From Candidatus Micrarchaeota archaeon (GTDB taxonomy: Archaea > Micrarchaeota > Micrarchaeia > CABMEP01), in the NCBI GenBank assembly GCA_964358895.1, contig CAYHPR010000003.1, positions 14,473-78,472 on the forward strand: DNA of 64,000 nt, read 5' to 3'. Positions 4,995-53,958 of the stretch are shown piece by piece. Every line of letters starts with the position of its first letter. The first letter of the stretch is position 1. The notes beneath the pieces are model-generated. The model saw only the letters and a list, made by a program, of their open reading frames with translations, was not told where the DNA came from and did not search any database. The position numbers and the translations under genes are program-made.

Positions 4995-5079
4995 TAGTTA
5001 AATCAATTTTACTATCTTTTATTTTCATGCCTTCCCGTAAACATTTAAAAGGGAGGAGTGATCTAATACTCGTGAGGTC

Positions 5080-6756: not shown

Positions 6757-6855
6757 TGGCTCGTTCCGTTTATCCTATCTTCTAATTATCCGTTAGCCGT
6801 CGTCTATTGCATTGTATATTGAAAGACTTAAATAGGTAAAACGCACTAAATATTC

Positions 6856-9800: not shown

Positions 9801-10926
9801 ACAGAATGCTACAAATATTAATCACGGAAATGCAGAGCTTGAAGCATATCAGTTATCAGTTCACGAATTATTCACAAAACTTTATCCAAAAGCAAAGGTG
9901 TCTGGTGAAATTAAGAACGTACTTGATCAGTATGCAAGAGATGGGCTTCTCACTGACAAAGTGGTTAACGCGCTCAAAGATGCAAATCTGATCGCAATAC
10001 CAAACGGATCAACAACAGAAAGGACGGTTAAGCAGGACGTAAGTTTCAATATTCAATCATTCCTGCTTCGATTTACAAAAGTTAAAGGAGTTGTATTAGG
10101 TGCAGGTGGAGGATTCGGTGATGTTAAATTTGACTATGAAATAACTGCACCAGTTCCAAGAATGAAACAAGAGTATTCTTCACTATTGAAGAGAGACGTG
10201 TTCCTGCCAGAAACAGACAACGAAGGAAGGCCAATACTGGACAAAAAGACATTCAATTTTTCAACTTCTGAAAAGATTAAAGGGCCAATAATCCAGATTG
10301 AGGGCAAACGTACAGCTGCTAGAATGGAATGGTTATTTTCGGAATCTGTTGATGTAAAGAATCTTATCAAGTCCGGTCCAGCTGTTGCAGATGTTCCGAT
10401 CGATCTTTTCAAAAAGAAATACAACAGTATTCTCGATCTTGCACAATTGATAACTCTCCCGTTGGTTCCAACAATTAATTCAGTCAAAGTAACTGGCCAG
10501 CTCGGAGAAATGAGTTCATTAAGACTTGCTTGGGATGTTGCACACGTTCCTATGTCCGAACTTCCATTCTACGGACAAAAAATAGGCGAACAGGTATTGG
10601 ATCGATTCCCAAACTGGCTTAGAAGAATGATTCCAGAAGTTAAGGAGATTCCTTTTGGTGCAACAATCGGATTTGTTGCTGAGAAACAAAAGGCAGGAAG
10701 TATTGAGGTTGATTTTGAAAAATATGCGAATGCAAAGATCCAGTTTGGTCCAGAAGCTATCCGATTCTGGTGGATGACGACAGTCGGAAGAAAGGATCAA
10801 GAGATTAGGCAATATGGAATGTCTGTCGACCTTCAGCAAGCATTCCAAAAGAAATGGCTTCCACTCAGAGCATTTGCGTCTAAGGGACAAGACAATACGC
10901 ATATTGGTGTTGAACTAACTTGGTAA
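6856..10926 (+). CDS. giant orphan protein (about 1300 aa), no signal peptide, no P-loop
   Basis: Uninterrupted 4-kb ORF co-directional with and tightly spaced after paralogs A and B. No TM segment, no Walker A motif and no recognisable enzymatic motif. Ends in IGVELTW. The true start may be an internal Met, since the first 60 aa are odd. Confidence 0.6.
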   Translation: MYTTSFRSIKAIKKFILHPVRKFITYPLVSTFLMYNTVLGTDLSQENDKYLKRTIDATIMGSEKDMGGVVAQKKEEVKPITSAPTVVGIIEKEIYSYHQANEEINGFKRQGLETLNQFDSLFNRSKKFNKEKSSQFIDADGKPQLRKALDWLNKNIAKFEDAPRTDAYFLQRSLEILGKFEASEEKVLDLLKKVDKSFQEIGMVEEVRTAIIEHYLPIFYQAGNIIASQADKRSYDVAEGNADNLTKSIDRWHTFISKSEFTKEDVESFVNEQDNLEKENKKNHNLEIDLTNPKNDISGFTDYSKFKRVPFDPGLNYIGKYYSALFSIQFEKPEKLRNINWYYLSQTDFGYATNVTFQLMDQVYQEGLQSVTIVKKALEDSVGKKVKKEEFRSNAFLPERFGTISDYYKTQHRDLKNFVGQSFDEWVDMYNPPYPLLVKLRLRLGELYTKSIYHAVRNEKSEFDRNKKSSEQLVAVFEETLKSSKKYTIEQLKKLNGVMLTARSASGSELRDILHDQYGLGNFYDWLVLNKIDVAKLLLTIPIIEPGSKEEVYLRHPLYGKLMDVFVTSVFYPLSKEQKPNMPYLSKEGERYPLFGNVPFREFIVGSDKKITEKTKVSEVDKIIEEKNKTLIPLPRDIILNARQSKEDISFSPGDSSVNTKVAIQPYTFDLVSHKYSKTDKVHDEEAISFTPGVRTTIFGVPVNLTMSDEWGADIPAYLLRNPFEKDFRNQRWDASYEQVKFTKDDQTIEITYSDISSFDQFVLQNKGWNKEGNIYSKGKYKLTIGENDFVLSDTKQEVSIKIPKDFSEYARPEDKDKKRIRYGTEGVKVDMPRYYATFKSNKAPVSAEIPLTSAHGDVRFIKSWFWLNRSIVSVPGDGLKAGQDFHVKSIVSREPTQRTFSLGVRTGGYSAYQTKSEIETNLPPSLSIQPPVSVSRTINQQLSFVNTAFIPNPIVLKNLGIKAGDILSAADSLKNYVDVMQQNATNINHGNAELEAYQLSVHELFTKLYPKAKVSGEIKNVLDQYARDGLLTDKVVNALKDANLIAIPNGSTTERTVKQDVSFNIQSFLLRFTKVKGVVLGAGGGFGDVKFDYEITAPVPRMKQEYSSLLKRDVFLPETDNEGRPILDKKTFNFSTSEKIKGPIIQIEGKRTAARMEWLFSESVDVKNLIKSGPAVADVPIDLFKKKYNSILDLAQLITLPLVPTINSVKVTGQLGEMSSLRLAWDVAHVPMSELPFYGQKIGEQVLDRFPNWLRRMIPEVKEIPFGATIGFVAEKQKAGSIEVDFEKYANAKIQFGPEAIRFWWMTTVGRKDQEIRQYGMSVDLQQAFQKKWLPLRAFASKGQDNTHIGVELTW

Positions 10927-16055: not shown

Positions 16056-17735
16056 ATGCGTTTTATTTTTTTTAAACATCTAAGTAAGATTAATATGACT
16101 ATACTGCTAAGTCTTTTTTTATTTATTTTTTTGATACTAGGCTTGATTGAGATAAACAGCCTATCTTTTACAGTTGATGAACCTGCACATATAATTTCAG
16201 GGTTTTTATATAATACTGAAAAAGATTTTAGTTTTGAAAAAACACACCCTCCTTTAATAAAATTAATGGCTACAGCTATTCCTGCCGTTTTATTAGATCT
16301 AAAACGATCAGATACTGGAGAATATAGCATATCCAGATTTTTCTTTTATAACGAAGAAAACTTCGAAGAGTTAGTTTTTTTTTCTAGAGCATTTATTTTG
16401 TTATTGTCTATCTCTCTTATTATTTTTATTTATAAATTTTCCTCAGAACTTTCTAATTCTAAAATTGGGCTTTTTGCAGTATTTTTATATATCTTCGAAC
16501 CGACCATAATGGCTAATTCAACTTTAGTTACTACTGATTTCGGAGTAGTTATTTTTGTTTTTTTATCTATTTATTTTTTATATTACTTCAAAAAAAACTT
16601 ACATAAATGTGTCTCCTGGAAATTTTTATTCGCGTCATTTTTTTCGGTCGGACTTGCTATTACATCGAAATTTTCTGGGTTGCTGGTTATGCCTATCTGG
16701 TTAGTATTATTTTTTTATAAAAACAATTTAAGTCTATATAAAAAATTTTTTATTATTTTCATTTTTTTATTTACAATTCTACTCACTATTAATTTTTTAT
16801 ATTCTTTTGATCGAGATTATAAATTTGCATATGACTGTAATGAAAATAAAAGCAATTGCCTTATAATATTTAATACTCCTGTTTTTGTTCCATTACCTGA
16901 AAAATTTGTAGAAGGTTTAAATTTAGTCAGAATCCATGCTCAAACTGGACATCCAGCATATCTATTTGGTGAGTATTCAGAAAAAGGTTGGTGGTATTAC
17001 TATCCGATTGCCTTTTTTATAAAAACACCAATTCCATTATTATTATTTATATTTTTTGGAGTTTTATTTATACTTAGAAGAAAGCGTCCCGTCTTTTTAT
17101 TTTTAGTTGTACCCATACTTTTATTTCTATTCTTTTTTATGTTTTTTAATAAAATTAATATTGGAATTAGACACATATTACCCATATACCCTTTTCTAGT
17201 TATTCTAGCAAGTCATTCATTCTATCTTATTAAAAATAAATATATTTTTTTCTTACTTTTAATCTGGTATTTTCTTGCTTTTATTTCTGTTTTTCCATTT
17301 AATTTAACTTATTTTAATGAATTAATAGGTGGGCCTATTAATGGGCCGAAAGCTTTACTTGATTCAAATATAGACTGGGGGCAGGACCTTAAATTCACAA
17401 GAGATTACATAAATAATAATCAAATAAAAGAGTTCTATTACGGACGAGCTATTGAAGAAAATAGTATCTACCCTTTTTTACTATATATTGATTCTAATAA
17501 AATAATCAATAAGCCATTCTGTTATCAAAAGAAGATTGGAACCTATATAGTTAATGTTAACACACTATATGCGTTGTATGGTGTAGGTCCTGATGCAAAC
17601 TATTCTCACCAGACTAAAATTCCCCCCGATTTAACTATCTATCGTCCACCTGAAGACTGTTATATCTGGCTTCGCAATGAGACTCCAATTCATATTATAG
17701 GGAATTCGGTCTATGTATATAATTTAACCGAATAA
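16056..17735 (+). CDS. GT-C fold glycosyltransferase (PMT/ArnT-like)
   Basis: Motifs FTVDEPAHIISGF and KTHPPLIKLM match the DE...HPPL signature of GT39/ArnT. Many TM helices. An alternative start is the ATG at 16095. Confidence 0.6.
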   Translation: MRFIFFKHLSKINMTILLSLFLFIFLILGLIEINSLSFTVDEPAHIISGFLYNTEKDFSFEKTHPPLIKLMATAIPAVLLDLKRSDTGEYSISRFFFYNEENFEELVFFSRAFILLLSISLIIFIYKFSSELSNSKIGLFAVFLYIFEPTIMANSTLVTTDFGVVIFVFLSIYFLYYFKKNLHKCVSWKFLFASFFSVGLAITSKFSGLLVMPIWLVLFFYKNNLSLYKKFFIIFIFLFTILLTINFLYSFDRDYKFAYDCNENKSNCLIIFNTPVFVPLPEKFVEGLNLVRIHAQTGHPAYLFGEYSEKGWWYYYPIAFFIKTPIPLLLFIFFGVLFILRRKRPVFLFLVVPILLFLFFFMFFNKINIGIRHILPIYPFLVILASHSFYLIKNKYIFFLLLIWYFLAFISVFPFNLTYFNELIGGPINGPKALLDSNIDWGQDLKFTRDYINNNQIKEFYYGRAIEENSIYPFLLYIDSNKIINKPFCYQKKIGTYIVNVNTLYALYGVGPDANYSHQTKIPPDLTIYRPPEDCYIWLRNETPIHIIGNSVYVYNLTE

Positions 17736-18818
17736 TCAATATTTTATGATTTGTTCATAAAATATTTGTTGGTTTAAGGCTATTTTATCCCAGGTAAGTT
17801 GTCTTGCAAAAGTTCTAGCAGAATCTCCGAGTTTTTTTCTTAATTTTTTATTTTCGGACAGTAGTAATATTTTTTTTGCAAGATTATTTGAATTTAAATT
17901 TTTTAATATAATGCTTCTTTCAGATGATGCATTTGTTATTGCAGAGCTTGCAATAATCGGTTTACCGCATGCAAAACTTTCAAGTGATACTATCGGATCT
18001 CCTTCAAACCTAGACGGACAACATAAAAACATTGAATTTGAAATAAATGACAACTTTTTGTCACCATTCATACGGCCTACCATCCTTATTCTTTGTTCTA
18101 GCTTCATCTGTTTAATCATTTTTTCCAACTTATACTTCTGTAAACCGTCCCCTATAATTATAAGATTTAAATCGGTTTTATCTTTTATTTTTGCAAATGC
18201 ATCAATAAGAACATCCAATCCTTTTTGATATATGTCCAATCGTCCAATGTACAATATATAATCTTTTTCACTCCGTTTTAAATTTAAGAGTGTCTTGTCT
18301 ACTCCATTAGGTATTACCTTAATATTGGTTTTTTTACCTTTTCTTACTTGACATATCTTATTTTTAATATCCTCAGATACTACTATATAATTATCGTAAA
18401 ATTTAGGATAAATTTTTTCATAAAATTTTGCAATAATGCCTACGGGGCCATAAGCTAGGGCATGATTTTCATATATGTTGCAAATTGAACACACAGTCGG
18501 AATATCAGTTTTTTTAGGAAAAAATGGTGAGAATGCAGATACATCCTTTACCAATAAATCACAATCATTCGAATAGTTCATACTTTCAAGTGAAAAGGAT
18601 ATCTTATTTAAAATAAAATTAGAAGAAGGCCATCCCAGAAATTTATAACGGATATTCTCTAATTTTTTTTCTTTGGGCGAATAAGGATATCTCCCGCTAT
18701 AAACTGTTATTTCATTATTATTATTTAAACGTCTATAAATCTCATGCGTTCTAGACGCTTGTCCTCCATCAAGCCATGGGTTATTAAAACTATCATAAAT
18801 AAAATGTTTTATTCTCAT
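17736..18818 (-). CDS. GT4 family glycosyltransferase (GT-B)
   Basis: C-terminal RFEGDPIVSLESFACGKPIIAS matches the EX7E motif of retaining GT4 enzymes. Confidence 0.7.
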   Translation of the reverse strand: MRIKHFIYDSFNNPWLDGGQASRTHEIYRRLNNNNEITVYSGRYPYSPKEKKLENIRYKFLGWPSSNFILNKISFSLESMNYSNDCDLLVKDVSAFSPFFPKKTDIPTVCSICNIYENHALAYGPVGIIAKFYEKIYPKFYDNYIVVSEDIKNKICQVRKGKKTNIKVIPNGVDKTLLNLKRSEKDYILYIGRLDIYQKGLDVLIDAFAKIKDKTDLNLIIIGDGLQKYKLEKMIKQMKLEQRIRMVGRMNGDKKLSFISNSMFLCCPSRFEGDPIVSLESFACGKPIIASSAITNASSERSIILKNLNSNNLAKKILLLSENKKLRKKLGDSARTFARQLTWDKIALNQQIFYEQIIKY

Positions 18819-21614: not shown

Positions 21615-22859
21615 ATGAACATATTAAGGATAATGCTTAACGCCCCTCCTTTTAAAGGTGGTGCAGAAAATAGAATACACGAAATTAGCAAAGTTCTTGC
21701 TAAAAAACATAAAATAACTGTATTAACTGGGGGTATTCCGGAAGGAAAAGAAAAAGTAGTAGACGGTATCAGATATATTTATTTTGGGGATATGAATATT
21801 TTTACAGGTTTTAAAAACGATTCTCTATCTGAAATGATAAAATGGTTAATCGATGTAAGTAGATACATCTTTTTTAAAAATATTAATATAAAACGATTTG
21901 AAGGTACTTATCTAAGGGCTATGGCAGATTGGTTAAACAAAAATGGAAAAGATTACGACATTATAATAAATGAATTTACGCCTGGGGCAATACGGCCAAT
22001 TTCCAATTACCCTTATAGTCTTAATGTAATACACTTAAGATATTCTTTATTTGATACATTCGAAAAGTCAACTAAATTTGGATGGAAATTTAATTGGTTA
22101 GAAGTCCCGTATTATTATCTATTTCAGCAATTTCTTTTTTTAACAAATAAAAATTTTATAGTTTGTAAGACTGATGATGCAAATGCAATACACTTTCTAA
22201 ATAAAAATGCAAAAATTAAAGTTATTCATCCTGCGGCTGATCCCAGCTTAAGGAAAGCAAAGACCGAAGAAAAAAATTTTATCTTATATATGGGTAGAAT
22301 AGATAAATACCAAAAAGGATTAGATCTACTTTTAGAAGCATTTGCTGAATTAAACTGCAAAGAAAAACTTGTTGTTGCAGGAGATGGTTATGATTTACTA
22401 GAACTTAAAGAAAAAGTTAAAGACTTAGATATAAAAAACAGAGTAAAGTTTGTTGGTTGGGTTGCTGGGAACAGTAAGAGGAAACTATTAACTAAATGTA
22501 AATTTGTTGTTATGCCTTCTAGAATAGAAGGATTAAGCCTCACATCTTTGGAGGCAGCTTATTGTGGAAAAGCAATTTTAGGCACTAATGCAGTTGCACA
22601 TGGCCTTCCAAACGTGTATTTAATTGAGTTGAATAAACAGGATATCTATCGGGGTTTAATTACTCTACTTAATAACTCCAAATTAAGGAAGAAATTAGGA
22701 AATAAAGGTAGAAAAGCAGCGAATAAATTTTCGTGGGAGAGTTCAGCAGGATTAGAAGAAGATTCATATAATCAAATTTTTAATAATAACAAATTAAAGA
22801 GCGAGATAACTGGTTTCGATGAAAATCTTAAGAATATTTTTAAACGCCCCTCCTTTTAA
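21615..22859 (+). CDS. GT4 glycosyltransferase, tandem copy 1 with junction-encoded C-terminus
   Basis: EX7E-type motif SRIEGLSLTSLEAAYCGKAILG. The body is identical to the downstream copy. The last 31 aa are encoded by the duplication junction and overlap the start of copy 2. Confidence 0.65.
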   Translation: MNILRIMLNAPPFKGGAENRIHEISKVLAKKHKITVLTGGIPEGKEKVVDGIRYIYFGDMNIFTGFKNDSLSEMIKWLIDVSRYIFFKNINIKRFEGTYLRAMADWLNKNGKDYDIIINEFTPGAIRPISNYPYSLNVIHLRYSLFDTFEKSTKFGWKFNWLEVPYYYLFQQFLFLTNKNFIVCKTDDANAIHFLNKNAKIKVIHPAADPSLRKAKTEEKNFILYMGRIDKYQKGLDLLLEAFAELNCKEKLVVAGDGYDLLELKEKVKDLDIKNRVKFVGWVAGNSKRKLLTKCKFVVMPSRIEGLSLTSLEAAYCGKAILGTNAVAHGLPNVYLIELNKQDIYRGLITLLNNSKLRKKLGNKGRKAANKFSWESSAGLEEDSYNQIFNNNKLKSEITGFDENLKNIFKRPSF

Positions 22860-23963
22860 AGGTGGTGCAGAAAATAGAATACACGAAATTAGCAAAGTTC
22901 TTGCTAAAAAACATAAAATAACTGTATTAACTGGGGGTATTCCGGAAGGAAAAGAAAAAGTAGTAGACGGTATCAGATATATTTATTTTGGGGATATGAA
23001 TATTTTTACAGGTTTTAAAAACGATTCTCTATCTGAAATGATAAAATGGTTAATCGATGTAAGTAGATACATCTTTTTTAAAAATATTAATATAAAACGA
23101 TTTGAAGGTACTTATCTAAGGGCTATGGCAGATTGGTTAAACAAAAATGGAAAAGATTACGACATTATAATAAATGAATTTACGCCTGGGGCAATACGGC
23201 CAATTTCCAATTACCCTTATAGTCTTAATGTAATACACTTAAGATATTCTTTATTTGATACATTCGAAAAGTCAACTAAATTTGGATGGAAATTTAATTG
23301 GTTAGAAGTCCCGTATTATTATCTATTTCAGCAATTTCTTTTTTTAACAAATAAAAATTTTATAGTTTGTAAGACTGATGATGCAAATGCAATACACTTT
23401 CTAAATAAAAATGCAAAAATTAAAGTTATTCATCCTGCGGCTGATCCCAGCTTAAGGAAAGCAAAGACCGAAGAAAAAAATTTTATCTTATATATGGGTA
23501 GAATAGATAAATACCAAAAAGGATTAGATCTACTTTTAGAAGCATTTGCTGAATTAAACTGCAAAGAAAAACTTGTTGTTGCAGGAGATGGTTATGATTT
23601 ACTAGAACTTAAAGAAAAAGTTAAAGACTTAGATATAAAAAACAGAGTAAAGTTTGTTGGTTGGGTTGCTGGGAACAGTAAGAGGAAACTATTAACTAAA
23701 TGTAAATTTGTTGTTATGCCTTCTAGAATAGAAGGATTAAGCCTCACATCTTTGGAGGCAGCTTATTGTGGAAAAGCAATTTTAGGCACTAATGCAGTTG
23801 CACATGGCCTTCCAAACGTGTATTTAATTGAGTTGAATAAACAGGATATCTATCGGGGTTTAATTACTCTACTTAATAACTCCAAATTAAGGAAGAAATT
23901 AGGAAATAAAGGTAGAAAAGCAGCGAATAAATTTTCGTGGGAGAGTTCAGCAGGATTAGAAGA
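21639..23963 (+). repeat. tandem direct duplication of two 1121-bp units (period 1204 bp, 83-bp junction) of a GT4 gene
   Basis: Every position I compared matches between the copies: 21657 with 22861, 21721 with 22925, 22621 with 23825 and 22751 with 23955. Divergence occurs only in the first 25 nt (MNILRIM against MKILRIF) and after ggattagaaga. Confidence 0.8.
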
Positions 23964-23991
23964 GGTCTATTATGCCGCATTACGCAAATGA
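22819..23991 (+). CDS. GT4 glycosyltransferase, tandem copy 2 with native C-terminus
   Basis: Same protein as 21615-22859 over about 373 aa. Ends EVYYAALRK. Confidence 0.7.
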   Translation: MKILRIFLNAPPFKGGAENRIHEISKVLAKKHKITVLTGGIPEGKEKVVDGIRYIYFGDMNIFTGFKNDSLSEMIKWLIDVSRYIFFKNINIKRFEGTYLRAMADWLNKNGKDYDIIINEFTPGAIRPISNYPYSLNVIHLRYSLFDTFEKSTKFGWKFNWLEVPYYYLFQQFLFLTNKNFIVCKTDDANAIHFLNKNAKIKVIHPAADPSLRKAKTEEKNFILYMGRIDKYQKGLDLLLEAFAELNCKEKLVVAGDGYDLLELKEKVKDLDIKNRVKFVGWVAGNSKRKLLTKCKFVVMPSRIEGLSLTSLEAAYCGKAILGTNAVAHGLPNVYLIELNKQDIYRGLITLLNNSKLRKKLGNKGRKAANKFSWESSAGLEEVYYAALRK

Positions 23992-45762: not shown

Positions 45763-46302
45763 TTGATCTATATGGTTCAATTATTTAAACTATTAAATAG
45801 TGCGGTAGCAAGCAGAGTTCTTTTGTTTTTCTTAAAAAGCCCTACAAAAAAAGCCTACGCAGGAAAAATACTAAAAGAGATGGAGATATCGAAGAAGAGC
45901 CTTTTCGATTCCTTAGTTAAACTCAAAGGAGAGGGATATCTGGATGCAACACAGATAGGTAGAACTATTTCCTACTCATTGAATCGAAACAATCCGGTCG
46001 TTAAACAATTAAAAATTCTTTTGACACTTTCTGAGTTAGTTCCAAAGATTAAGCATTTTGAAGGCAAGGCAGAAGCCTACTTATACGGTTCTGCTGCAAG
46101 AGGCGAAGATACAGAAAGCAGCGATTTAGACCTTTTGATTATAAGCAAAATGGGGAAGGTAGAACTCATGCATAGCGTAAGGGAGATGTCTAAAGAAAAA
46201 ACAAAGTTTGTGATTCTGACTCCAATAGAATATGCAAGGCTTGCGCATAGCGATACACCGTTTTACGAAAGAATAGAAAAAGACAAGATAAGGTTGGTTT
46301 AA
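45763..46302 (+). CDS. wHTH-fused minimal nucleotidyltransferase (MNT-type antitoxin), second copy
   Basis: NTase motif YLYGSAARGEDTESSDLDLLI. N-terminal wHTH. Confidence 0.6.
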   Translation: MIYMVQLFKLLNSAVASRVLLFFLKSPTKKAYAGKILKEMEISKKSLFDSLVKLKGEGYLDATQIGRTISYSLNRNNPVVKQLKILLTLSELVPKIKHFEGKAEAYLYGSAARGEDTESSDLDLLIISKMGKVELMHSVREMSKEKTKFVILTPIEYARLAHSDTPFYERIEKDKIRLV

Positions 46303-46721
46303 TGGATGTAGAAAAATTTATTGAAAAGGGATTTATCAAGAAGATAGAGCCATCAAAAGATCTGGTGATCAAAGAGTTTAAAGAAGCAGATTACGATCTG
46401 TCAAAGGCAAAAAAGGCAATTATTGACGAAGATTTTAAATGGGCTACGGTTAAAGCATATTATGCTATCTTCCATTCTGCAAAGGCAATCTTATTCAGTT
46501 TAGGATTACAAGAGAAAACACATTTCATTGTAGGAGAAGTTTTGAAAGAACTTAGTAAAGATGGTAAATTAGAATCAAATTATACCGATGTATTCAATGC
46601 AGCATTAGCCGCAAGAGAGGACGCCGACTATCATTACGAATATTCCGATAAAACAGCAAAAGAATTGGTGACAATGGCAGTAGATTTTGTCAAAAGGATG
46701 AAGAAAATGGACTTGATGTGA
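46302..46721 (+). CDS. HEPN-domain protein
   Basis: REDADYH is an R-x5-H HEPN motif. All-alpha. Start overlaps the MNT stop. Confidence 0.55.
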   Translation: MDVEKFIEKGFIKKIEPSKDLVIKEFKEADYDLSKAKKAIIDEDFKWATVKAYYAIFHSAKAILFSLGLQEKTHFIVGEVLKELSKDGKLESNYTDVFNAALAAREDADYHYEYSDKTAKELVTMAVDFVKRMKKMDLM

Positions 46722-48985: not shown

Positions 48986-49699
48986 ATGTATCCAGTGCAA
49001 CCATCAGCTTATGATCGAGCCATTACTGTTTTCTCACCTGATGGTAGACTATTTCAGGTTGAATATGCAAAAGAAGCAGTCCGAAGAGGAGCAACGGCCA
49101 TCGGTTTAGCAAGCAATGATGGTATTGTTTTGATTGCACATAAAACAAAACCATCAAAACTTATTGTTCCTATTTCACTAAAGAAAATTTTCGAAGTTGA
49201 TGATCACGTAGCTATAGTGGCATCTGGTCTAGTTGCGGATGCAAGAAGACTTATTGATATGGCAAGAATAGAAGCACAACGATACCGCTACACCTACAAT
49301 GAGGCTGCAGATGTTGAATATTTGGCTAAGCACATAGCAGATCAAATGCAGCTTTACACCCAATACGGTGGTGCAAGACCATTCGGTGTCTCACTTATCT
49401 TTGGAGGAGTTGATTCAAATCCAAAGCTTTTCGAAGCTGAACCAAGCGGTGCATTAATTGGTGCCAAGGCATCTGTTATCGGTGCAGGAAAAACTGAGGT
49501 AACTGAATATCTTGAGAAAGAATACAGCGAATCAATGTCAGTCGAAGAACTTACTACTTTAGGATTCAAAGCAATGAAGCAAGTGCCAGAGATGAAGCTT
49601 AAGACAGACATATTTGATGTTGGAGTTATACCTACATCTTCGAAGAAATTCGAACTTCTTCCAATGGAAAAAGTAAATTCTTATGTTTCTAAAGCATGA
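48986..49699 (+). CDS. psmA: proteasome subunit alpha
   Basis: AYDRAITVFSPDGRLFQVEYA and VASGLVADAR...YTQYGGARPFGVSLIFGG show near-identical blocks to the Thermoplasma acidophilum PsmA sequence. Confidence 0.95.
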   Translation: MYPVQPSAYDRAITVFSPDGRLFQVEYAKEAVRRGATAIGLASNDGIVLIAHKTKPSKLIVPISLKKIFEVDDHVAIVASGLVADARRLIDMARIEAQRYRYTYNEAADVEYLAKHIADQMQLYTQYGGARPFGVSLIFGGVDSNPKLFEAEPSGALIGAKASVIGAGKTEVTEYLEKEYSESMSVEELTTLGFKAMKQVPEMKLKTDIFDVGVIPTSSKKFELLPMEKVNSYVSKA

Positions 49700-49742
49700 T
49701 TAATTAGCTTTTGTTGAAATAAATAATAAAAAGAAGGAGATA

Positions 49743-49762
49743 CTAAGAACCTTGGTTCTTAG
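49743..49762 (+). promoter_or_regulatory. perfect palindrome CTAAGAACC-TT-GGTTCTTAG immediately 5' of the SBDS ribosome-binding site
   Basis: Nine-bp perfect arms, followed by GGGTGAG and 5 nt later the ATG at 49773. The same core recurs at 53604. Confidence 0.5.
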
Positions 49763-49772
49763 GGTGAGTTGA

Positions 49773-50468
49773 ATGGGTTCTTTAGAAAAGTCTGTAGTAG
49801 CCCGTATAGAAATTAAAGGAGAAAAATTTGAGATTTTCGTAGATCCGAATCTTGCGTTAGATTTCAGACTCGGAAAGAAAACAGATTTCGCTAATGTTAT
49901 GGTTGTAGAAGAGATATTCTCTGATGTGAAGAAAGGTGAACATCAATCTGACGAGAAATTGAAAAAGTTTTTCGGAACTACAAATGTACTCGATGTTGCT
50001 AAGAAAATTGTAAAAGATGGTGACGTTCCAATAACAACCGAACAACGAAAACAGATGGTTGAAGAGAAAAGAAAAAAAATAATTGCAATTCTTTCACGTG
50101 AAACAATTGATCCGCGAACGGGTGCACCGCATCCGCCGCAGCGGATTGAGAGAGCGTTGGAAGAAGTAAGAATTCACGTTGATCCGTTCAAGCCTGCTGA
50201 AGCCCAAGTTAATGAAGCTTTAGCAGCACTTCGGCCGATTCTGCCGATGAAGTTTGAACATGCGCGTTTCGCAGTGAAAATTCCTTCAGATGTTGCTCAG
50301 AAAGTTTATGGAGCATTGAAGGAATATACTATTCAACAGGAAGAATGGGCAAGTGACGGTTCGCTGATGGTTGTGGTCGAAATGCCTGCGGGAATGCAAT
50401 CGGATTTTTTCGATCGCATCAACAGGTTAACTGCTGGTCGAGCTCAGACAAAAGAAATGAAAAAATAA
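49773..50468 (+). CDS. sdo1: SBDS/Sdo1 ribosome maturation protein
   Basis: Characteristic start [18 protein letters not shown]. Size 231 aa. Conserved position after psmA. Confidence 0.85.
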
Positions 50469-50509
50469 AAATAAGAAAAAAAATAATGATTTTACGGAGA
50501 TGAGTTTAT

Positions 50510-51199
50510 ATGACAAAATTAGTTATTCCAGGAGATATGTTAACTGAAAAAGTTATAAGAAGTCCTTACGTATTTATACGAGAAGGAAAAAGCTTTGCAG
50601 CTGTTATCGGAACATTTGATTCTGAAAATGAGAGATTTGTTCCGCTCAAAGGTGCATACTTGCCTCAACTTGGAGATGTAGTAATAGGTGCAGTTGAAGA
50701 AGAAAAAGTGATTGGTTACCAGATTGATTTATTCGCACCATACAAAGGTTTAATTTTTTCAAGAGGACTTAGATCAGCACTTTCTCAGGGAGATATCATA
50801 TCCGCAGAGATTTCAGAAGTTTCAGAAGTCAAAGATGTGATTCTTGACAGACCGCGCACATTGCGCGGAGGACAAATTGTATTTATTCCACCAACAAAGG
50901 TATCGCGTATTATAGGAAAGCAGATGTCAATGTTGCAGTTGTTGCAGAGAGGAACAGGTTGTGAAATCTTTGTAGGAAAGAATGGAGTAGTTTGGGTTAA
51001 AGGACAAAATGCTAGTAAAGCAATTGAAACGATTCTAAAGATTGAACGTGAATCACACACGCGAGGATTGACAGAAAGAATACAAAAATATTTAGGTGTT
51101 GAGTCAATGCCAACAATGAGTCAAGCTTCTAGTGTGTCAGAAACACGACAGGAGCGAGCACCACCAAGAGAAGGAAGAGAGTCTAGTTCCTTTGATTAA
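50510..51199 (+). CDS. rrp4: exosome RNA-binding cap subunit Rrp4 (S1 + KH)
   Basis: N-terminal domain, then an S1-like region, then a KH GxxG (GKNGVVWV). No Zn-ribbon, so Rrp4 rather than Csl4. Operon position fits. Confidence 0.75.
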   Translation: MTKLVIPGDMLTEKVIRSPYVFIREGKSFAAVIGTFDSENERFVPLKGAYLPQLGDVVIGAVEEEKVIGYQIDLFAPYKGLIFSRGLRSALSQGDIISAEISEVSEVKDVILDRPRTLRGGQIVFIPPTKVSRIIGKQMSMLQLLQRGTGCEIFVGKNGVVWVKGQNASKAIETILKIERESHTRGLTERIQKYLGVESMPTMSQASSVSETRQERAPPREGRESSSFD

Positions 51200-51247
51200 A
51201 TAGGAGATATATTTGTTAAGAAATTATGATTTTATAGAGGTGAAATT

Positions 51248-52027
51248 ATGGTAGGCGGAGAAAGTCCAATTCCATTGTTTGTAAATGGAAAGAGACTGGA
51301 CGGAAGAAGTCCAGATGATATGAGAGAAGTAAGTATTGTTGCAGGACCACTGAATAAAGCAGATGGTAGTGCTTATCTGGAACTTGGTAAGAATAAGGTA
51401 CTTGTTGGAGTGTTTGGACCACGTGAAGTGTTTCCAAAGCATCAGACAGATCCATACAAAGCAGTTGTCAGATGCATATACAGAATGGCACCATTTTCAA
51501 CTGAAGAACATGGAAGAACTAGACCAAACAGAAGATCGATAGAAATTTCAAAAGTTATCCGTGAAGTGTTTGAAAATGTGATCGTGCGCGAAATTTATCC
51601 AAAGACGGCAATCGAAATCTATATAGAAATTCTTGAATCGAACGGCAGTACGCGTGTAGCAGGTCTCACAGCTGCATCAGTAGCTCTTGCAAATGCAGGA
51701 ATTCCAATGAAAGACTTGCCTGTAGCTGTATCTGTTGGAAAGATCGACGGTAAGATTGCAGTTGATATGATGAAAGAAGAGGATAATTTTGGTCAGGCAG
51801 ATATGCCAATAGCAATTAAGCCTACAACTGGTGAAATCCTTTTGCTTCAAATGGATGGGAAGATGACGGGCGAAGAGTTTGCGAAAGCCATTGATATGGC
51901 ATTCAAGGCATCTGTAGGTGTTCATGAGAAACAGATTGCAGCACTGAAATCATACTACGAAAAAATCGAATCAGAGATTTCAGAGAACGGAGCAAGCGGA
52001 CAGATCGGACCGATCGAAAAAGTATAG
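51248..52027 (+). CDS. rrp41: exosome RNase PH subunit Rrp41
   Basis: RLDGRSPDDMREV at the N-terminus and an RNase PH fold length of 259 aa. Follows rrp4. Confidence 0.85.
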   Translation: MVGGESPIPLFVNGKRLDGRSPDDMREVSIVAGPLNKADGSAYLELGKNKVLVGVFGPREVFPKHQTDPYKAVVRCIYRMAPFSTEEHGRTRPNRRSIEISKVIREVFENVIVREIYPKTAIEIYIEILESNGSTRVAGLTAASVALANAGIPMKDLPVAVSVGKIDGKIAVDMMKEEDNFGQADMPIAIKPTTGEILLLQMDGKMTGEEFAKAIDMAFKASVGVHEKQIAALKSYYEKIESEISENGASGQIGPIEKV

Positions 52028-52064
52028 ACTGTGTAACGGCTATGAATTAAAATTATAGAATAAG

Positions 52065-52841
52065 GTGATATGCATGATATCAGATGAATTGAGAAAAAGT
52101 ACGGTTGTTGAGTTTGCAAAAACCGACAAAAGACTTGATGGAAGAGGTTTGAAAGATTATAGAACTATCACAATTGAAAGAAATGTGATTGGTACTGCAG
52201 AAGGTTCTGCACGTGTCAAGATTGGGGATACAACTGTTTTAGCAGGTGTTAAAATTGATCCGATCGAGCCATACGAGGACAGACCAAACGAAGGAACATT
52301 GGCAGTTGACGCTGAATTCCTTGCACTAGCACATGAAACATTTGAACCTGGCCAACCAGGTGAAGATGCGATTGAACTTGCTAGAATAGTAGATAGAGGA
52401 ATCAGATCAGCCGAGGCAATCGATGTTAAGTCACTATTTATTGAAGCTGGTAAGGCTTGGGGCGTATACGTTGACCTTTACGTGCTTGACAACGATGGAA
52501 ACTTAATAGATGCAGCCGCCTTAGCAGCTGTAAACGCTCTGCAAGGAATGAAAGTACCAAAACTAGTTGATGGTAACGCTGTTAGAGTTAAGCCAACGCC
52601 AATGAATCTTAAGACAATACCAACTTATTGCACATATGTTAAAGTTGGTGATAAGATTCTCTCCGATCCAACTTACACTGAAGAGGCTGCTGCGGATGCA
52701 AGAATAACCTTTTCAGTAGGAGACAATATGCTATATGCGATTCAGAAGTCTGGCAGCGGTGCATTCACAAAGGCTGAAATCTTAGGTATGTTCGATCAAT
52801 CCTTGACAATCAGGAAACAATTATTAACCTATATCAAGTAA
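52065..52841 (+). CDS. rrp42: exosome subunit Rrp42
   Basis: RLDGRGLKDYRTITIE and RNase PH-like domain organisation. Follows rrp41. Confidence 0.85.
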   Translation: MICMISDELRKSTVVEFAKTDKRLDGRGLKDYRTITIERNVIGTAEGSARVKIGDTTVLAGVKIDPIEPYEDRPNEGTLAVDAEFLALAHETFEPGQPGEDAIELARIVDRGIRSAEAIDVKSLFIEAGKAWGVYVDLYVLDNDGNLIDAAALAAVNALQGMKVPKLVDGNAVRVKPTPMNLKTIPTYCTYVKVGDKILSDPTYTEEAAADARITFSVGDNMLYAIQKSGSGAFTKAEILGMFDQSLTIRKQLLTYIK

Positions 52842-52910
52842 TATATCTAGAACAAGCTATAGTGTTAATCTAGTACAAATAACTAAAATCTAGTACAAAC
52901 AAATGATATT

Positions 52911-53153
52911 ATGACATCCTACGCGGTTCGTGGTGGAAGATCTGTCAAGATAAGGCTTCAAGCAGTAGCCAAGCTTCTTAGGACAAAGCAGAAGTGTCCT
53001 AGATGCGAAAAGAAACTGCTGAAGCGAATAAATACAGGTGTTTGGAAATGCAAGTCTTGTGGTAGTACATTCGCAGGAGGCGCTTACGCCCCAACAACCT
53101 CTGCAGGAGAAGTAGGTGCTAGAATTATTTCAGATTTTAATAAGAATAAGTGA
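52911..53153 (+). CDS. rpl37ae: 50S ribosomal protein L37ae
   Basis: CPRC...CKSCG zinc ribbon, 80 aa. RTKQKCPRCEKK...TGVWKCKSCGSTFAGGAYAP is the canonical L37ae sequence. Confidence 0.9.
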   Translation: MTSYAVRGGRSVKIRLQAVAKLLRTKQKCPRCEKKLLKRINTGVWKCKSCGSTFAGGAYAPTTSAGEVGARIISDFNKNK

Positions 53154-53181
53154 AGATATAGTTTATGGAGATGATGATGTT

Positions 53182-53310
53182 ATGTATACATGTGCAAACT
53201 GTAGTAAGGAAATAGAGTCGATAGACAATTTCGTTAGATGCCCATATTGCGCATGGCGCATTCTTTACAAACCTTCATTACCTATCTCTAGGACAATCAA
53301 GACAGATTAG
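53182..53310 (+). CDS. rpoP: DNA-directed RNA polymerase subunit P (Rpo12/RpoP)
   Basis: MYTCANCSKE...VRCPYCAWRIL is a CxxC...CxxC zinc ribbon of about 43 aa. The ORF-track start at 53116 overlaps L37ae and is likely an artefact. Confidence 0.75.
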   Translation: MYTCANCSKEIESIDNFVRCPYCAWRILYKPSLPISRTIKTD

Positions 53311-53340
53311 ATTGTCACAGGAGTCTGAAGATAGTTTCGG

Positions 53341-53580
53341 ATGACAGAGATGAAAACAATTATAGAAATTCCTTTTGAAGATAGTAAGCTGGCAAAAAAT
53401 GCTTACAAAGTTCTGCAAGGGGAGCTCACATTCAAAAAAAGAGCAGCACCAAGTGTAAAAATCGTAGGAAAAAGTATTGTAGTAACGATAAATGCTGATG
53501 ACATATCTGCATTGCATGCAGCAACTGGATCGTTCATGCGTGCATTGAAAGTAATATTTTCTGTTCAATCAACGAAATAA
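53341..53580 (+). CDS. pcc1: KEOPS complex subunit Pcc1-like
   Basis: 79 aa, predicted alpha/beta. Sits in the conserved superoperon slot between rpoP and prefoldin beta where Pcc1 (COG2892) lies in most archaea. Confidence 0.5.
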   Translation: MTEMKTIIEIPFEDSKLAKNAYKVLQGELTFKKRAAPSVKIVGKSIVVTINADDISALHAATGSFMRALKVIFSVQSTK

Positions 53581-53603
53581 ATTACAGATGTAGGAAGGAG
53601 ATA

Positions 53604-53624
53604 GTAAGAACCAATGGTTCTTAC
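53604..53624 (+). promoter_or_regulatory. perfect palindrome GTAAGAACC-AAT-GGTTCTTAC immediately 5' of the prefoldin-beta ribosome-binding site
   Basis: Nine-bp perfect arms share the core AAGAACC...GGTTCTT with 49743-49762. Followed by GGTGAC and 4 nt later the ATG at 53634. Confidence 0.5.
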
Positions 53625-53633
53625 GGTGACGAA

Positions 53634-53958
53634 TATGGCTCAAGAAAGAGAAGAAATGGAAAATTATCAAGTGGCACAACAGCAACTTCAGTTTCTTATG
53701 TTACAAAAGCAACAGATGAAGATGCAGTCGGAAGAAATTGATCACGCTCTTAAAGAAATTGAGAAGGCGAAAGGAGATTCTTACAGAATTGTAGGTCCAA
53801 TCCTAATGCAATCGTCAAAAGATGAGATAGTTAAAGATCTGCAGGAAAAGAAATCATTGTTCGAGTCTAGGATTGAGATTCTTAACAAGCAAGAAGACAG
53901 GCTAAAGAAATCTTTAATGGATGTACGAAAAGCAATGGAAAAACCTGACAGAAATTAG
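53634..53958 (+). CDS. pfdB: prefoldin subunit beta
   Basis: Coiled-coil, beta-hairpin, coiled-coil organisation (QQLQFLMLQKQQMKMQ...RIVGPILMQSSKDEIVKDLQEK...EILNKQE), about 108 aa. Start moved from the track value 53614, which lies inside the palindrome, to the RBS-preceded ATG at 53634. Confidence 0.8.

Follow-up and report, generated by a model that had tools for sequence, protein, structure and literature searches.

Short extragenic palindromes of the REP/BIME type are known from Enterobacteria and Pseudomonas, where they are RAYT-associated. They are multi-copy, carry a short conserved flank at the foot of the stem, and occur within operons and between convergent genes; the hairpin motif described here, which was found twice in an archaeal exosome superoperon, shares these properties. 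In mRNA, REP elements act as barriers to 3'-to-5' exonucleases and leave cistrons that differ in stability, which is comparable to the role proposed below. They differ from the motif in being species-specific, imperfect and linked to a Y1 transposase, with GTAG as their flank rather than a Shine-Dalgarno (SD)-like GGAGAU. The motif, in contrast, keeps one stem across phyla and domains and adjoins tRNA 5' ends.

The 5' stabilisers of Gram-positive bacteria, such as cryIIIA STAB-SD and the leader stem-loops of ermC and aprE, combine a leader hairpin with an SD-like sequence that has no cognate start codon, in hosts that have 5'-to-3' exonucleases. The pairing of SD-like sequence and hairpin recalls the motif, but these stabilisers are single-gene elements, have no conserved stem sequence and are not known from sites before tRNAs or in introns. 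In Haloferax, a tRNA-like element upstream of 5S rRNA is cut by tRNase Z, as part of a wider tRNA-punctuation model. As with the motif, a structure lies immediately 5' of a stable RNA, and cleavage at its 3' edge gives the mature 5' end; for the motif, such cleavage is only proposed, and its hairpin of 9 bp with a 2-3-nt loop has no T-loop or acceptor-like features. CRISPR repeat hairpins (Cas6e/Cas6f) resemble the motif in their unit of ~28-30 nt, sequence-specific stem and single-stranded flank, and Cas6 cuts them at the 3' base of the stem, where the proposed end at the motif would also lie. The motif differs in its solitary copies, with no arrays or spacers, no cas genes seen nearby and no typical repeat termini. 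The lambda nut and rrn boxA-boxB elements likewise place a conserved single-stranded box beside a hairpin, in rRNA leaders and spacers and in stable-RNA operons. The loop of boxB is recognised, however, whereas the motif conserves its stem and leaves its loops free to vary; order and sequence also differ, and we know of no archaeal equivalent of boxA-boxB antitermination. The split ribosome-binding sites of phage T4 genes 38 and 25 have a hairpin between SD and AUG that draws the two together, which resembles two members of the present family (L035 and L076). They differ from the superoperon copies, where another canonical SD follows the stem, and from the family at large, which is also found ahead of non-coding RNAs. 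No family matching the motif was present in Rfam, and no paper on the motif was found.

The window, a 64-kb stretch of a Micrarchaeota (DPANN) contig from Hainich groundwater, carries the gene order PsmA-SBDS-Rrp4-Rrp41-Rrp42-L37ae-RpoP-Pcc1-prefoldin beta, which matches the exosome superoperon named in the original prediction. That prediction described palindromes at 49743-49762 and 53604-53624, each before a ribosome-binding site. Both were found there, each followed by GGTGA, a 5-nt spacer and ATG. The features of the two leaders are as follows.

49716..49724, + strand: GAAATAAAT block of copy 1, A/T-rich, from pairwise leader alignment
49733..49742, + strand: GAAGGAGATA, SD-like flank 5' of the copy 1 stem, single-stranded (consensus in the family AGGAG(A/T)T-N)
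49743..49762, + strand: hairpin copy 1, CTAAGAACC / TT / GGTTCTTAG
49763..49775, + strand: SBDS start region, with GGTGA SD at 49763-49767, 5-nt spacer and ATG at 49773-49775
49776..49785, + strand: third half-site GGTTCTTTAG, within SBDS codons 2-4
53574..53582, + strand: GAAATAAAT block of copy 2, overlapping the Pcc1 stop codon at 53578-53580
53594..53603, + strand: GAAGGAGATA, SD-like 5' flank of copy 2, an exact 10-mer match
53604..53624, + strand: hairpin copy 2, GTAAGAACC / AAT / GGTTCTTAC
53625..53637, + strand: prefoldin beta start region, with GGTGA at 53625-53629, 5-nt spacer and likely ATG at 53635-53637

The window contains exactly two matches to TAAGAACC-N1-6-GGTTCTTA, where 100 dinucleotide shuffles gave an expectation of 0.00, and the exact 10-mer GAAGGAGATA, identical upstream of both palindromes, is found only at these two sites. 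Both copies are exact and would not be expected by chance. Pairwise alignment of the leaders identified GAAATAAAT further upstream as common to both. Since similarity reaches upstream through GAAGGAGATA and GAAATAAAT, the duplicated unit spans ~45-60 nt; the predicted palindromes are real, but the 20 nt first noted falls short of the full common unit, GAAGGAGATA-N-TAAGAACC-(2-3 nt)-GGTTCTTA-N'-GGTGA-5 nt-ATG. The GAAATAAAT block of copy 1 may be partly ancestral spacer sequence; in a comparison with the window spacer, GTTGAA(A/T)T was present in relative L004, which lacks the motif. The sequence of copy 1 is not an assembly artefact, because two independent replicate assemblies (L149 and L150) were identical over 2,214 nt that include it.

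RNA folding predicted both hairpins to be stable with GGTGA unpaired, in agreement with the earlier view that they leave the ribosome-binding site free. Copy 1 was predicted to form 8 bp with a CUUG loop (-8.9 kcal/mol) and copy 2 to form 9 bp (-11.3 kcal/mol, z = -4.3); the covariance-model scores were 48.9 and 45.1 bits, respectively. The half-site GGTTCTTTAG is able to pair with the 5' arm of copy 1, enclosing SD and AUG, and the MFE structure of the 101-nt leader uses this pairing (z = +0.39). Its codons are also present in relative L001, which lacks the motif, and the half-site is probably coincidental coding sequence. The second ATG, which lies at 53635-53637 and not, as first given, at 53634, is probably the prefoldin start: it has GGTGA at the same 5-nt distance as SBDS does, which makes the choice a reasonable one. 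Alignment of prefoldin N-termini was uninformative for start choice.

A palindrome scan over 185,579 species genomes returned at least 118 loci. Among the matches listed, 48 were archaeal, mostly DPANN and often several per genome; the same palindrome was enriched in DPANN archaea and was also found in CPR bacteria and some Clostridia. Of the 48 archaeal matches listed, 41 had G[GA]AG at 3-6 nt from the stem on one side and not the other, and none had it on both. The flank consensus was AGGAG(A/T)T, and the palindrome nearly always has (A)GGAG(A/T)T before it, on a single side. It is well supported that both superoperon sites carry copies of one compact motif, ~28-30 nt long and most simply read as an RNA stem-loop formed by the GGAG strand, and that its family extends over DPANN archaea and has versions among CPR bacteria and some Clostridia. 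The layout is equally well supported: a single-stranded SD-like (A)GGAG(A/U)U, one variable nucleotide, and a 9-bp stem in which a covarying pair closes UAAGAACC/GGUUCUUA around a small variable loop. The original prediction missed both the conserved SD-like 5' flank and the family membership across DPANN archaea and some bacteria.

Covariation supported the RNA-hairpin reading. When canonical and variant copies were aligned, 98.1% of cells paired and seven of the nine stem pairs showed changes on both sides, the variants having been picked with a pairing filter that did not exclude A.C variants. The observed values were reached in 0 of 500 shuffles, and slid controls paired at 35-51%. Each clear one-mismatch variant with the flank (L017, L114, L119, L141 and L144) had a mismatch that reads as G.T along the GGAG strand and as A.C along the opposite one; across related copies the helix is kept by compensatory changes and by G.U pairs in the sense strand. 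Loops, or arm spacings, measured 2, 3, 4, 5 and 26 nt, and one contig (L113) held canonical and compensated stem variants together. A stem-loop on the GGAG strand was therefore favoured over a dimer operator, because variants remain paired, G.U pairs fall on one strand and loops vary.

It is very unlikely that the motif is a dimeric transcription-factor operator or core-promoter element co-regulating growth genes (tRNAs, ribosomal proteins, the exosome operon), which would include internal promoters ahead of SBDS and prefoldin. The palindrome is perfect and extra half-sites lie near several loci, but variable half-site spacing, the mixture of stems in L113 and strand-asymmetric mismatches disfavour the dimeric regulator raised earlier. 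The motif lies at ~-1 to -28 from tRNA +1 or leaderless-type ATGs, where archaeal repressors and core promoters sit, and A/T-rich blocks are found upstream of both window copies. At the TATA position relative to the abutting tRNA +1, however, is AGGAGWT and not an A/T-rich box, which weakens the case for an internal core promoter, and a conserved TTTTAAA 33 nt upstream of the flank (L056 and L114, by eye) places the motif inside the transcript. Copies between convergent genes and within introns, and versions in bacteria, whose transcription machinery differs, also argue against such an element.

Residence of the motif in non-coding spacers, namely pre-tRNA leaders, tRNA introns, an rRNA spacer, mRNA leaders, trailers and intercistronic gaps, is well supported. 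The stem adjoins tRNA +1 in L054, L056, L114 and L141 (ARAGORN or Rfam) and in L026, L048, L105, L112 and L138 (by eye); in L145 it adjoins another apparently structured RNA (by eye). The motif lies within tRNA introns in L078 and L083 (ARAGORN) and L081 (by eye) and, in L140, within the intron of a tRNA-Ala that sits in an rRNA-operon spacer (by eye). In L035 and L076 it stands 1-2 nt ahead of an ATG, which opens the C-terminal half of a split-intein LonB in the former and a DUF357 gene in the latter. Elsewhere it precedes the SD and start codon of RadA, and it also lies upstream of L7Ae, of L18e and of an apparent ATP-synthase c subunit (the last by eye). All eight bacterial copies checked were in sense orientation, downstream of rplL (four copies), aspS, mnmG, pheT and pyrI. 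Orientation relative to co-directional neighbours was not uniform (~16 sense and ~8 antisense, by table reading with crude ORF calls), and in convergent-gene spacers of L053, L092, L113, L142 and L148 the TAA of the hairpin is the opposite-strand stop codon. Orthologous copies stay intact while their flanks diverge (89-97% versus 60-87% identity).

The motif was absent from the relatives L001, L004 and L007, whose SBDS is 69-84% identical, which indicates that it was gained by the lineage of the window and, as close relatives do without it, that it is dispensable here. The window spacer has ~41 nt more than that of L004 (by eye). Insertion of a copy into each of two superoperon spacers in this Micrarchaeota lineage, psmA/SBDS and pcc1/prefoldin, is well supported, as is its position just upstream of a GGTGA ribosome-binding site that either existed or was co-inserted. 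The gain of a ~41-60 nt insert at two sites, with extra common flanking similarity, would also fit a selfish or domesticated DNA palindromic repeat, comparable to REP/BIME or to miniature inverted-repeat elements. A single-stranded DNA hairpin would be copied by an HUH/Y1-type or other enzyme with the GGAG flank as guide or cleavage site, and RNA effects, if any, would be secondary. The motif is multi-copy per genome, in both orientations and in 5', 3' and convergent spacers; partial local copies, truncated tandem units and one head-to-head pair occur near some loci, and L023 and L134 carry a ~80 nt block with a duplicated tRNA 3' end on either side. Furthermore, the conserved flank at the stem foot resembles REP GTAG, and one-strand G.T pairing fits single-stranded DNA too. 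We nevertheless consider such a repeat unlikely. The families matched among 110 neighbouring proteins were housekeeping ones, and no transposase, RAYT or integrase was among the best 25 of the 84 Pfam families matched, which also sets the motif apart from REP elements. It was absent from the phage and plasmid collections scanned, and its stem sequence is kept over archaeal phyla and bacteria, whereas REP families are confined to species. Conserved orthologous copies and the precise abutment of the stem against tRNA +1 point to selection on function.

At 9 of 10 positions the flank agrees with the SD complement of a relative's 16S 3' end (...GATCACCTCCA). As a standby site or as a split ribosome-binding site, it could recruit the 30S subunit. 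The hairpin, once closed, would bring the flank beside the start codon, an arrangement known from phage T4 gene 38, or would boost the GGTGA downstream. In L035 and L076 the flank is the only SD-like sequence, many neighbour genes are highly expressed, and in the window GGAGATGA serves as an ordinary SD at Rrp4. A translation-initiation module of this kind is nonetheless quite unlikely, as the same motif occurs at tRNAs, another RNA, introns and an rRNA spacer, sites at which translation plays no part. Stem and start codon are 2 to ~55 nt apart and thus lack a fixed geometry for translation; a canonical GGTGA is already present 5 nt ahead of the ATG at both window copies, and the conserved stem sequence is left unexplained.

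The motif RNA could itself be the product: trimming of leaders, introns, spacers and mRNA remnants would in every case yield the same small RNA of ~35-40 nt (single-stranded AGGAGAU and a 3' hairpin), with a role in trans such as base-pairing to the 16S anti-SD or titration of a protein. The motif is found in excised or discarded RNA segments, its abutment on tRNA +1 would yield a leader fragment ending in the hairpin, and some copies are antisense to both neighbours, implying independent transcription. L017 has two copies in one 222-nt spacer, one of them a G.U variant. This account has little chance of being correct: it is entirely inferential, close relatives lack the window copies, and no dedicated promoter or terminator pattern was found at the copies.

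We favour, tentatively and at slightly less than an even chance, a reading of the motif as punctuation in transcripts, in which the hairpin would mark or protect RNA ends by a putative mechanism. A simple stability hairpin would need neither a phylum- and domain-wide stem sequence nor an SD-like flank, and RNase P would make tRNA 5' ends with or without a hairpin; non-uniform orientation, convergent-gene copies, variable distances between stem and start codon, and dispensability in close relatives also count against punctuation. The compensatory changes and sense-strand G.U pairs support the intra-operon processing or stability element suggested by the original prediction, the stability role itself being putative.

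Under transcript punctuation, RNA 3' of the stem would have a defined 5' end, made by RNase P at tRNAs, by some endonuclease elsewhere, or by transcription start. The upstream fragment would then terminate in the stem, which may block 3'-to-5' decay by the exosome, and the SD-like flank could serve in 30S binding or protein recognition; cleavage site, exonuclease block and stability role are all conjectural. In the window, the operon mRNA would be split at ~49762/49763 and 53624/53625, with predicted RNA 5' ends at ~49763 before SBDS and ~53625 before prefoldin beta. The downstream mRNAs would be left beginning at their own SD, and the stability of the psmA and L37ae-RpoP-Pcc1 segments would be uncoupled from that of the SBDS-exosome and prefoldin segments.

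Inspection of the window sequence located two hairpins within the exosome superoperon, whose order by Pfam is PsmA, SBDS, Rrp4, Rrp41, Rrp42, L37ae, RpoP, Pcc1 and prefoldin beta. Both lay exactly where the original prediction had placed a pair of palindromes, and they were joined by a third half-site that it had not mentioned:

49743-49762, + strand: hairpin copy 1, CTAAGAACC-TT-GGTTCTTAG, before SBDS
53604-53624, + strand: hairpin copy 2, GTAAGAACC-AAT-GGTTCTTAC, before prefoldin beta
49776-49785: third half-site GGTTCTTTAG (GGT TCT TTA G), a repeat of the 3' arm within SBDS codons 2-4

Both copies were exact for the 8-nt arms TAAGAACC and GGTTCTTA with a loop of 2-3 nt, and copies 1 and 2 differ in the ninth, closing pair of the stem (C-G and G-C, respectively). 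Each copy occupies a non-coding position beside the 5' boundary of a gene and is followed by GGTGA, a 5-nt spacer and ATG; the stem ends lie 10 nt from the SBDS and prefoldin ATGs, with GGTGA directly between. The identity of the two copies reaches upstream beyond the palindromes, which had been missed originally: an identical GAAGGAGATA lies 5' of both (49733-49742 and 53594-53603) and occurs nowhere else in the window, and GAAATAAAT is common to both farther upstream.

The pattern TAAGAACC-N1-6-GGTTCTTA occurred twice in the 64 kb window and had no match in 100 dinucleotide-preserving shuffles. Using R1, a covariance model that we built from 36 copies of the motif, copies 1 and 2 scored 48.9 and 45.1 bits, respectively, inside the range of the 36 training copies and the other copies. 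Because the next match in the window reached just 13.6 bits (E = 2.6), the window holds only these two copies. Replicate assemblies from Hainich well H52 (ERZ1292622 and ERZ1292621) were identical to the window over 2,214 nt, copy 1 included, indicating that the sequence is real; together with natural variation among orthologous copies, this ruled out an assembly or adapter artefact. Rfam 15 gave no gathering-score match in the window and no match with E<=5 at either motif site (49600-53750); in the related loci scanned, too, the motif was unmatched, which ruled out a known RNA family. A description of the motif was not found in a full-text literature search. The paired palindromes are part of a longer shared unit and, far from being an isolated curiosity of the exosome operon, they belong to a widespread motif family that is conserved and supported by covariation.

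The distribution of the family was assessed by scanning one genome per species, 185,579 species in all, for TAAGAACC-N2-3-GGTTCTTA. The scan returned at least 118 loci, and 48 of the matches listed were archaeal by record title. These were mostly from DPANN lineages (Woese-, Pace-, Nano-, Parv- and Micrarchaeota), in which single genomes often held several loci; a few Nitrososphaeria, one Bathyarchaeota and one Thermoplasmata made up the rest. Of the 48 archaeal matches listed, 41 had G[GA]AG on one side of the stem only, at a distance of 3-6 nt, and none had it on both. Stacking of the copies gave the oriented consensus (T)AGGAG(A/T)T-N-R-TAAGAACC-loop-GGTTCTTA-Y, in which the one-sided flank (A)GGAG(A/T)T ends 2 nt before the 8-nt arm, that is, one nucleotide before the 9-bp stem, as it does in both window copies. 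Searching metagenomes with the Micrarchaeota-type flank retrieved 14 loci, none of which was an orthologous SBDS or prefoldin motif site. An enrichment of the half-site AAGAACC throughout the genome was also considered and dropped, as its count outside palindromes in DPANN loci (57) equalled expectation (57.7); enrichment in these loci was restricted to <=100 nt from a full motif copy.

A similar unit was found in bacteria, with one additional nucleotide separating GGAG from the stem. In CPR bacteria it comes after another hairpin, just downstream of rplL in four genomes and among tRNAs in others, and in a few uncultured Oscillospiraceae and Christensenellales MAGs it recurs many times, downstream of aspS, mnmG, pheT and pyrI. 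The remaining bacterial matches listed, including all those from cultured isolates, had no flank and look like chance palindromes. In seven loci of G+C-rich uncultured Oscillospiraceae and Pullichristensenella (L019, L024, L033, L042, L070, L079 and L130), the motif lies within long repetitive non-coding regions that hold further hairpins, which differ between copies yet are still self-complementary; L130 carries 106-nt inverted repeats ~1.7 kb apart. These regions may represent a separate structured RNA or repeat family.

The palindromes had originally been read either as RNA hairpins or as a DNA site for a dimeric regulator, and covariation had been proposed as a check. Variant copies were retrieved from other loci with R1 and a pattern search, and included the following:

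L113, two copies, with a canonical copy in the same contig: paired stem variant TAAGAAAC/GTTTCTTA
L119 and L114: paired stem variant TCGGAACC/GGTTCTGA
L141: paired stem variant TAGGAACC/GGTTTCTA
L099: paired stem variant TAAAGACC/GGTCTTTA
L139: paired stem variant AGGGAACC/GGTTCCCT
L061: copy with a 26-nt loop

When 24 distinct copies, some canonical and some variant, were aligned, standard pairs filled 98.1% of cells and changes on both sides were seen in 7 of the 9 pairs, values that none of 500 shuffles reached; sliding the partner column by 1-3 lowered pairing to 35-51%. The ninth pair, across 45 copies, was A-T in 31, G-C in 8, C-G in 1 and G-T in 1, with non-pairs in 4. The variants in the covariation count were picked through a pairing filter, one that would have let A.C variants in, and the clear one-mismatch flanked variants (L017, L114, L119, L141 and L144) were all G.T on the GGAG strand, equivalent to A.C on the other. 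Loops across the family measured 2, 3, 4, 5 or 26 nt. Maintained pairing, the strand asymmetry of G.T and the range of loop lengths together argue for base pairing within a single strand, namely the GGAG strand. RNA would be the simplest reading of such pairing, with single-stranded DNA as the alternative. Fixed half-site spacing and strand-independent recognition, as expected of a dimeric operator, were not found: the spacing varies, and single mismatches are confined to G.T on the GGAG strand. An operator or promoter was graded the least likely of the rival explanations, and we consider it improbable.

The most conspicuous position of the motif is at tRNAs. The 9-bp stem adjoins tRNA +1 in four loci confirmed with tools (L054, L056, L114 and L141) and, by eye, that of multi-intron tRNAs in five more (L026, L048, L105, L112 and L138); among the genome-scan matches listed, all Micrarchaeota copies but those of the window have this position. 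In L145 the stem adjoins what by eye is an apparently structured RNA, which Rfam does not recognise. Other copies reside within tRNA introns (L078 and L083 by ARAGORN, L081 by eye), and in L140, a Micrarchaeota-like contig, the motif is in the T-loop intron of the rRNA-operon spacer tRNA-Ala (by eye). This tRNA-Ala has two introns by eye, and the SSU match of the L140 operon (4008-10727) spans 2,920 nt, implying large insertions. An internal promoter, which had been among the original suggestions, was rejected on geometry as far as a core promoter is concerned: in an archaeal BRE/TATA promoter the TATA box is A/T-rich and has its centre ~26 nt before the start of transcription, whereas at stems adjoining tRNA +1 positions -28 to -22 read AGGAGWT. 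In L056 and L114 a conserved TTTTAAA box was seen by eye 33 nt upstream of the flank, a position from which transcription would start a few nucleotides before AGGAG and the motif would therefore lie within the pre-tRNA leader.

Copies were also found before protein-coding genes. The stem ends 1-2 nt from the ATG of a DUF357 gene in L076. In L035 it ends equally close to the ATG of the C-terminal LonB half, in a LonB that a split intein appears to divide. The L035 locus (Woesearchaeota, 5314-8000) consists of an N-extein plus intein-N ORF, a decayed spacer of ~720 nt, the motif and then the ATG, which appears to open the intein-C and C-extein part. The motif precedes the SD and start of RadA in L060 and, by eye, of an ATP-synthase c subunit in L139, a locus that shares the hairpin-N-SD-ATG layout of the window copies. 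L18e, L7Ae and a PPIase have it farther away, at 30-55 nt before the gene. The position relative to start codons, which had been proposed as a check, thus differs among protein genes. The 110 proteins flanking DPANN copies gave housekeeping matches, including FtsZ (three times), S10 (twice), S7, S12, S19e, S28e, thermosome and AlaRS. In DPANN archaea the family is set apart by its link with the introns and 5' ends of tRNAs and with the leaders of housekeeping genes. Copies that do not fit a simple sense-strand picture were also present: some follow a co-oriented gene at a distance of 45-90 nt, those in L053, L092, L113, L142 and L148 lie between convergent genes with the hairpin TAA as the stop codon of the opposite-strand gene, and about 8 are apparently antisense to both neighbours by crude ORF calls.

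A widespread palindrome of this kind could be a REP-like DNA element, which we regard as doubtful. REP/BIME repeats are species-specific and high in copy number and have a cognate Y1 (RAYT/TnpA) gene that mobilises them. In contrast, the same stem is shared by Woese-, Pace-, Nano-, Parv- and Micrarchaeota, Nitrososphaeria and bacteria, and only 2 copies occur in the 64 kb window. As to the Y1 gene, no transposase was among the 25 most frequent of the 84 Pfam families matched by the 110 flanking proteins. The motif was 89-97% identical in orthologous pairs (L056/L114, L078/L081, L142/L148 and the repeated block of L023/L134) compared with 60-87% for the 60-nt flanks. This greater conservation of the motif indicates, at the level of sequence comparison, purifying selection and not recent selfish spread alone. 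Searches of 50,697 phage and 72,556 plasmid records gave no convincing motif match (all partial, E >= 1), and with no transposase among the listed flanking families a mobile-element origin was set aside as unlikely. Flanked copies (GGGAGATCG-TAAGAACC-GTA-GGTTCTTA) were present in three related low-GC IMG/VR contigs classified as viral (L013, L015 and L016), and L011 carries another copy. Such contigs could belong to viruses that infect small archaea, or they could be cellular and wrongly classified.

Several loci carried repeated or rearranged units. A BIME-like arrangement was seen in L144 (2520-2575), where two motif copies lie head to head and their flanks form the palindrome CTCCTAGGAG. 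One Woesearchaeota genome has a motif block of ~80 nt after two different tRNAs (L023 6950-7120 and L134 5360-5480). A duplicated fragment of a tRNA 3' end (AATCCGGGCTGCGGCG) and a T-run come after each block and have the look of a scar from integration or duplication. In L135, L136, L138 and L146, one of them a contig of 759 kb, 2-3 tandem truncated units (GGGAGATAATAAGAACCGTAGACAAGTTAAAAG, flank and 5' arm only) come before the full motif; next to it, downstream, L135 and L138 have a tRNA and L136/L146 have unidentified sequence. Such truncated copies of 33-37 nt, in some Micrarchaeota contigs, were the only tandem units. CRISPR repeats form regular arrays with unique spacers, whereas the motif loci listed have a single palindrome each, except L070 (two, 687 nt apart). 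Bacterial intrinsic terminators have a G+C-rich stem and a U-tract, whereas the stems in the window are rich in A and U, and GGGUGA or CGGUGA comes after them; UUUUU follows the stem in some family members (L061 and L117).

As RNA, copy 1 is predicted to form 8 bp with a CUUG loop (-8.9 kcal/mol) and copy 2 to form 9 bp (-11.3 kcal/mol, z = -4.3), with GGUGA and AUG unpaired in both hairpins. When 101 nt were folded, the MFE structure instead joined the 5' arm of copy 1 to SBDS codons 2-4, with the SD and AUG enclosed. This riboswitch-like pairing is probably coincidental, since the fold was no better than shuffles (z = +0.39) and the codons are present in L001, a relative that lacks the motif. 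The 16S 3' end of a relative (...GAUCACCUCCA) identifies GGUGA as a canonical SD. Compared with the full SD complement, the flank consensus AGGAGAUGAU agrees at 9 of 10 positions; GGAGATGA serves as an ordinary SD at Rrp4. This likeness would suit a translational standby site or split ribosome-binding site, an unlikely reading of a family whose distances to start codons vary and which has many members at tRNAs. It would also suit a trans-acting small RNA that mimics the SD, which we consider improbable. A STAB-SD 5' stabiliser has an SD-like sequence near the 5' end of the transcript and lacks a start codon at SD distance. The sequence part of this description fits the window copies, in which the first start codons come 12-13 nt after GGAG, in the loop. 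Neither arm was found in the 16S or 23S of a Micrarchaeota relative, which removed rRNA mimicry, and a reverse-complement likeness to the 16S 3' end (GAACC-N3-GGUU...AUCACCUCC) was set aside, as the G.U pairs favour the opposite strand.

The start codons in the loops were also considered. TTG at 49752 opens a 6-codon ORF ending with TGA just before the SBDS ATG, and ATG at 53614, in the copy 2 loop and 13 nt after GGAG, is in frame with prefoldin. A uORF or N-terminal extension was rejected, as no coding signal was supported and loops are not conserved across the family. For prefoldin, the original choice of the second ATG is favoured by its GGTGA 5 nt upstream, the same as at SBDS, with the coordinate corrected from 53634 to 53635; alignment with two relatives, in which N-termini are not conserved, does not separate 53614 from 53635.

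The window SBDS protein has a 100% identical database entry, from a 90 kb NCBI/ENA contig, and its nearest relatives are named Micrarchaeota or Micrarchaeia. The closest available relatives, L001/L002 and L004 (SBDS 84% identity) and L007 (69%), keep the operon and lack the motif. By eye, L004 has CTTTTGTTGAATT|GTTGAGTTAA... at the place of the window spacer, where the window has CTTTTGTTGAAAT, ~41 extra nt with the flank and hairpin, and then GGTGAGTTGA. From these extra nucleotides, the motif looks like an insertion acquired in the window lineage. L001 has its own hairpins (1540-1607 and 2360-2424) just before the psmA and SBDS SDs, ACGGGCGGA...TCCGCCGT and ACGGAC-AAG-GTCCGT, respectively, which may be a lineage-specific counterpart of the motif.

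Elsewhere in the window, tandem paralogous ORFs of 414 and 390 aa (21615-23991), 97% identical over their first 300 nt with the copies 1,204 nt apart, suggest that a gene was recently duplicated in tandem. An NTP_transf_2 nucleotidyltransferase ORF and, after it, a HEPN-domain ORF (45763-46718), separated from the downstream superoperon by a few genes, look like a toxin-antitoxin-like pair. A perfect 12-bp palindrome at 17738-17766, AATATTTTATGA/TCATAAAATATT, unrelated to the motif in sequence, lies exactly between the convergent genes 16056-17735 (+) and 17736-18818 (-) and looks like a bidirectional 3'-end hairpin.

The reading we prefer is that the motif would act as a transcript-punctuation element. 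That stems throughout the family adjoin mature 5' ends suggests that a defined species would begin just 3' of the stem, and the stem would be the 3'-terminal structure of the upstream RNA, where it would resist the exosome. In the window, RNA ends would be expected at ~49762/49763 and 53624/53625, downstream mRNAs would start at their SD, and the psmA and L37ae-RpoP-Pcc1 segments would differ in stability from SBDS-exosome and prefoldin. The proposal of an RNA hairpin involved in processing was borne out in part, in that pairing is maintained and one strand is favoured; the function, punctuation included, is inferred from sequence. More broadly, and tentatively, the motif could be an RNA signal shared across domains (DPANN, CPR and some Clostridia), in which a sequence-specific factor reading single-stranded AGGAGAU and the UAAGAACC/GGUUCUUA stem would define tRNA, small RNA and mRNA 5' ends, either without RNase P or together with it; leaders, introns and spacers might in addition give rise to one shared small RNA that mimics the SD.

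To our knowledge, RNA metabolism in DPANN archaea is essentially uncharted, including how tRNAs are matured, how operon transcripts are split and how expression is controlled with few regulators. A 28-nt motif that is conserved, covariation-supported and kept across phyla, at tRNA 5' ends, within tRNA introns and an rRNA spacer and in front of genes for ribosome biogenesis, the proteasome and chaperones, offers a concrete handle on it, predicting RNA ends at ~49763 and 53625 in the window and a trans-acting reader. Its presence in CPR bacteria and some Clostridia raises the question of convergence versus horizontal spread. If only a REP-like selfish palindrome, the motif would still be an unusually widely shared one; if the cross-domain signal is true, it would be a general transcript-punctuation system in ultra-small prokaryotes.
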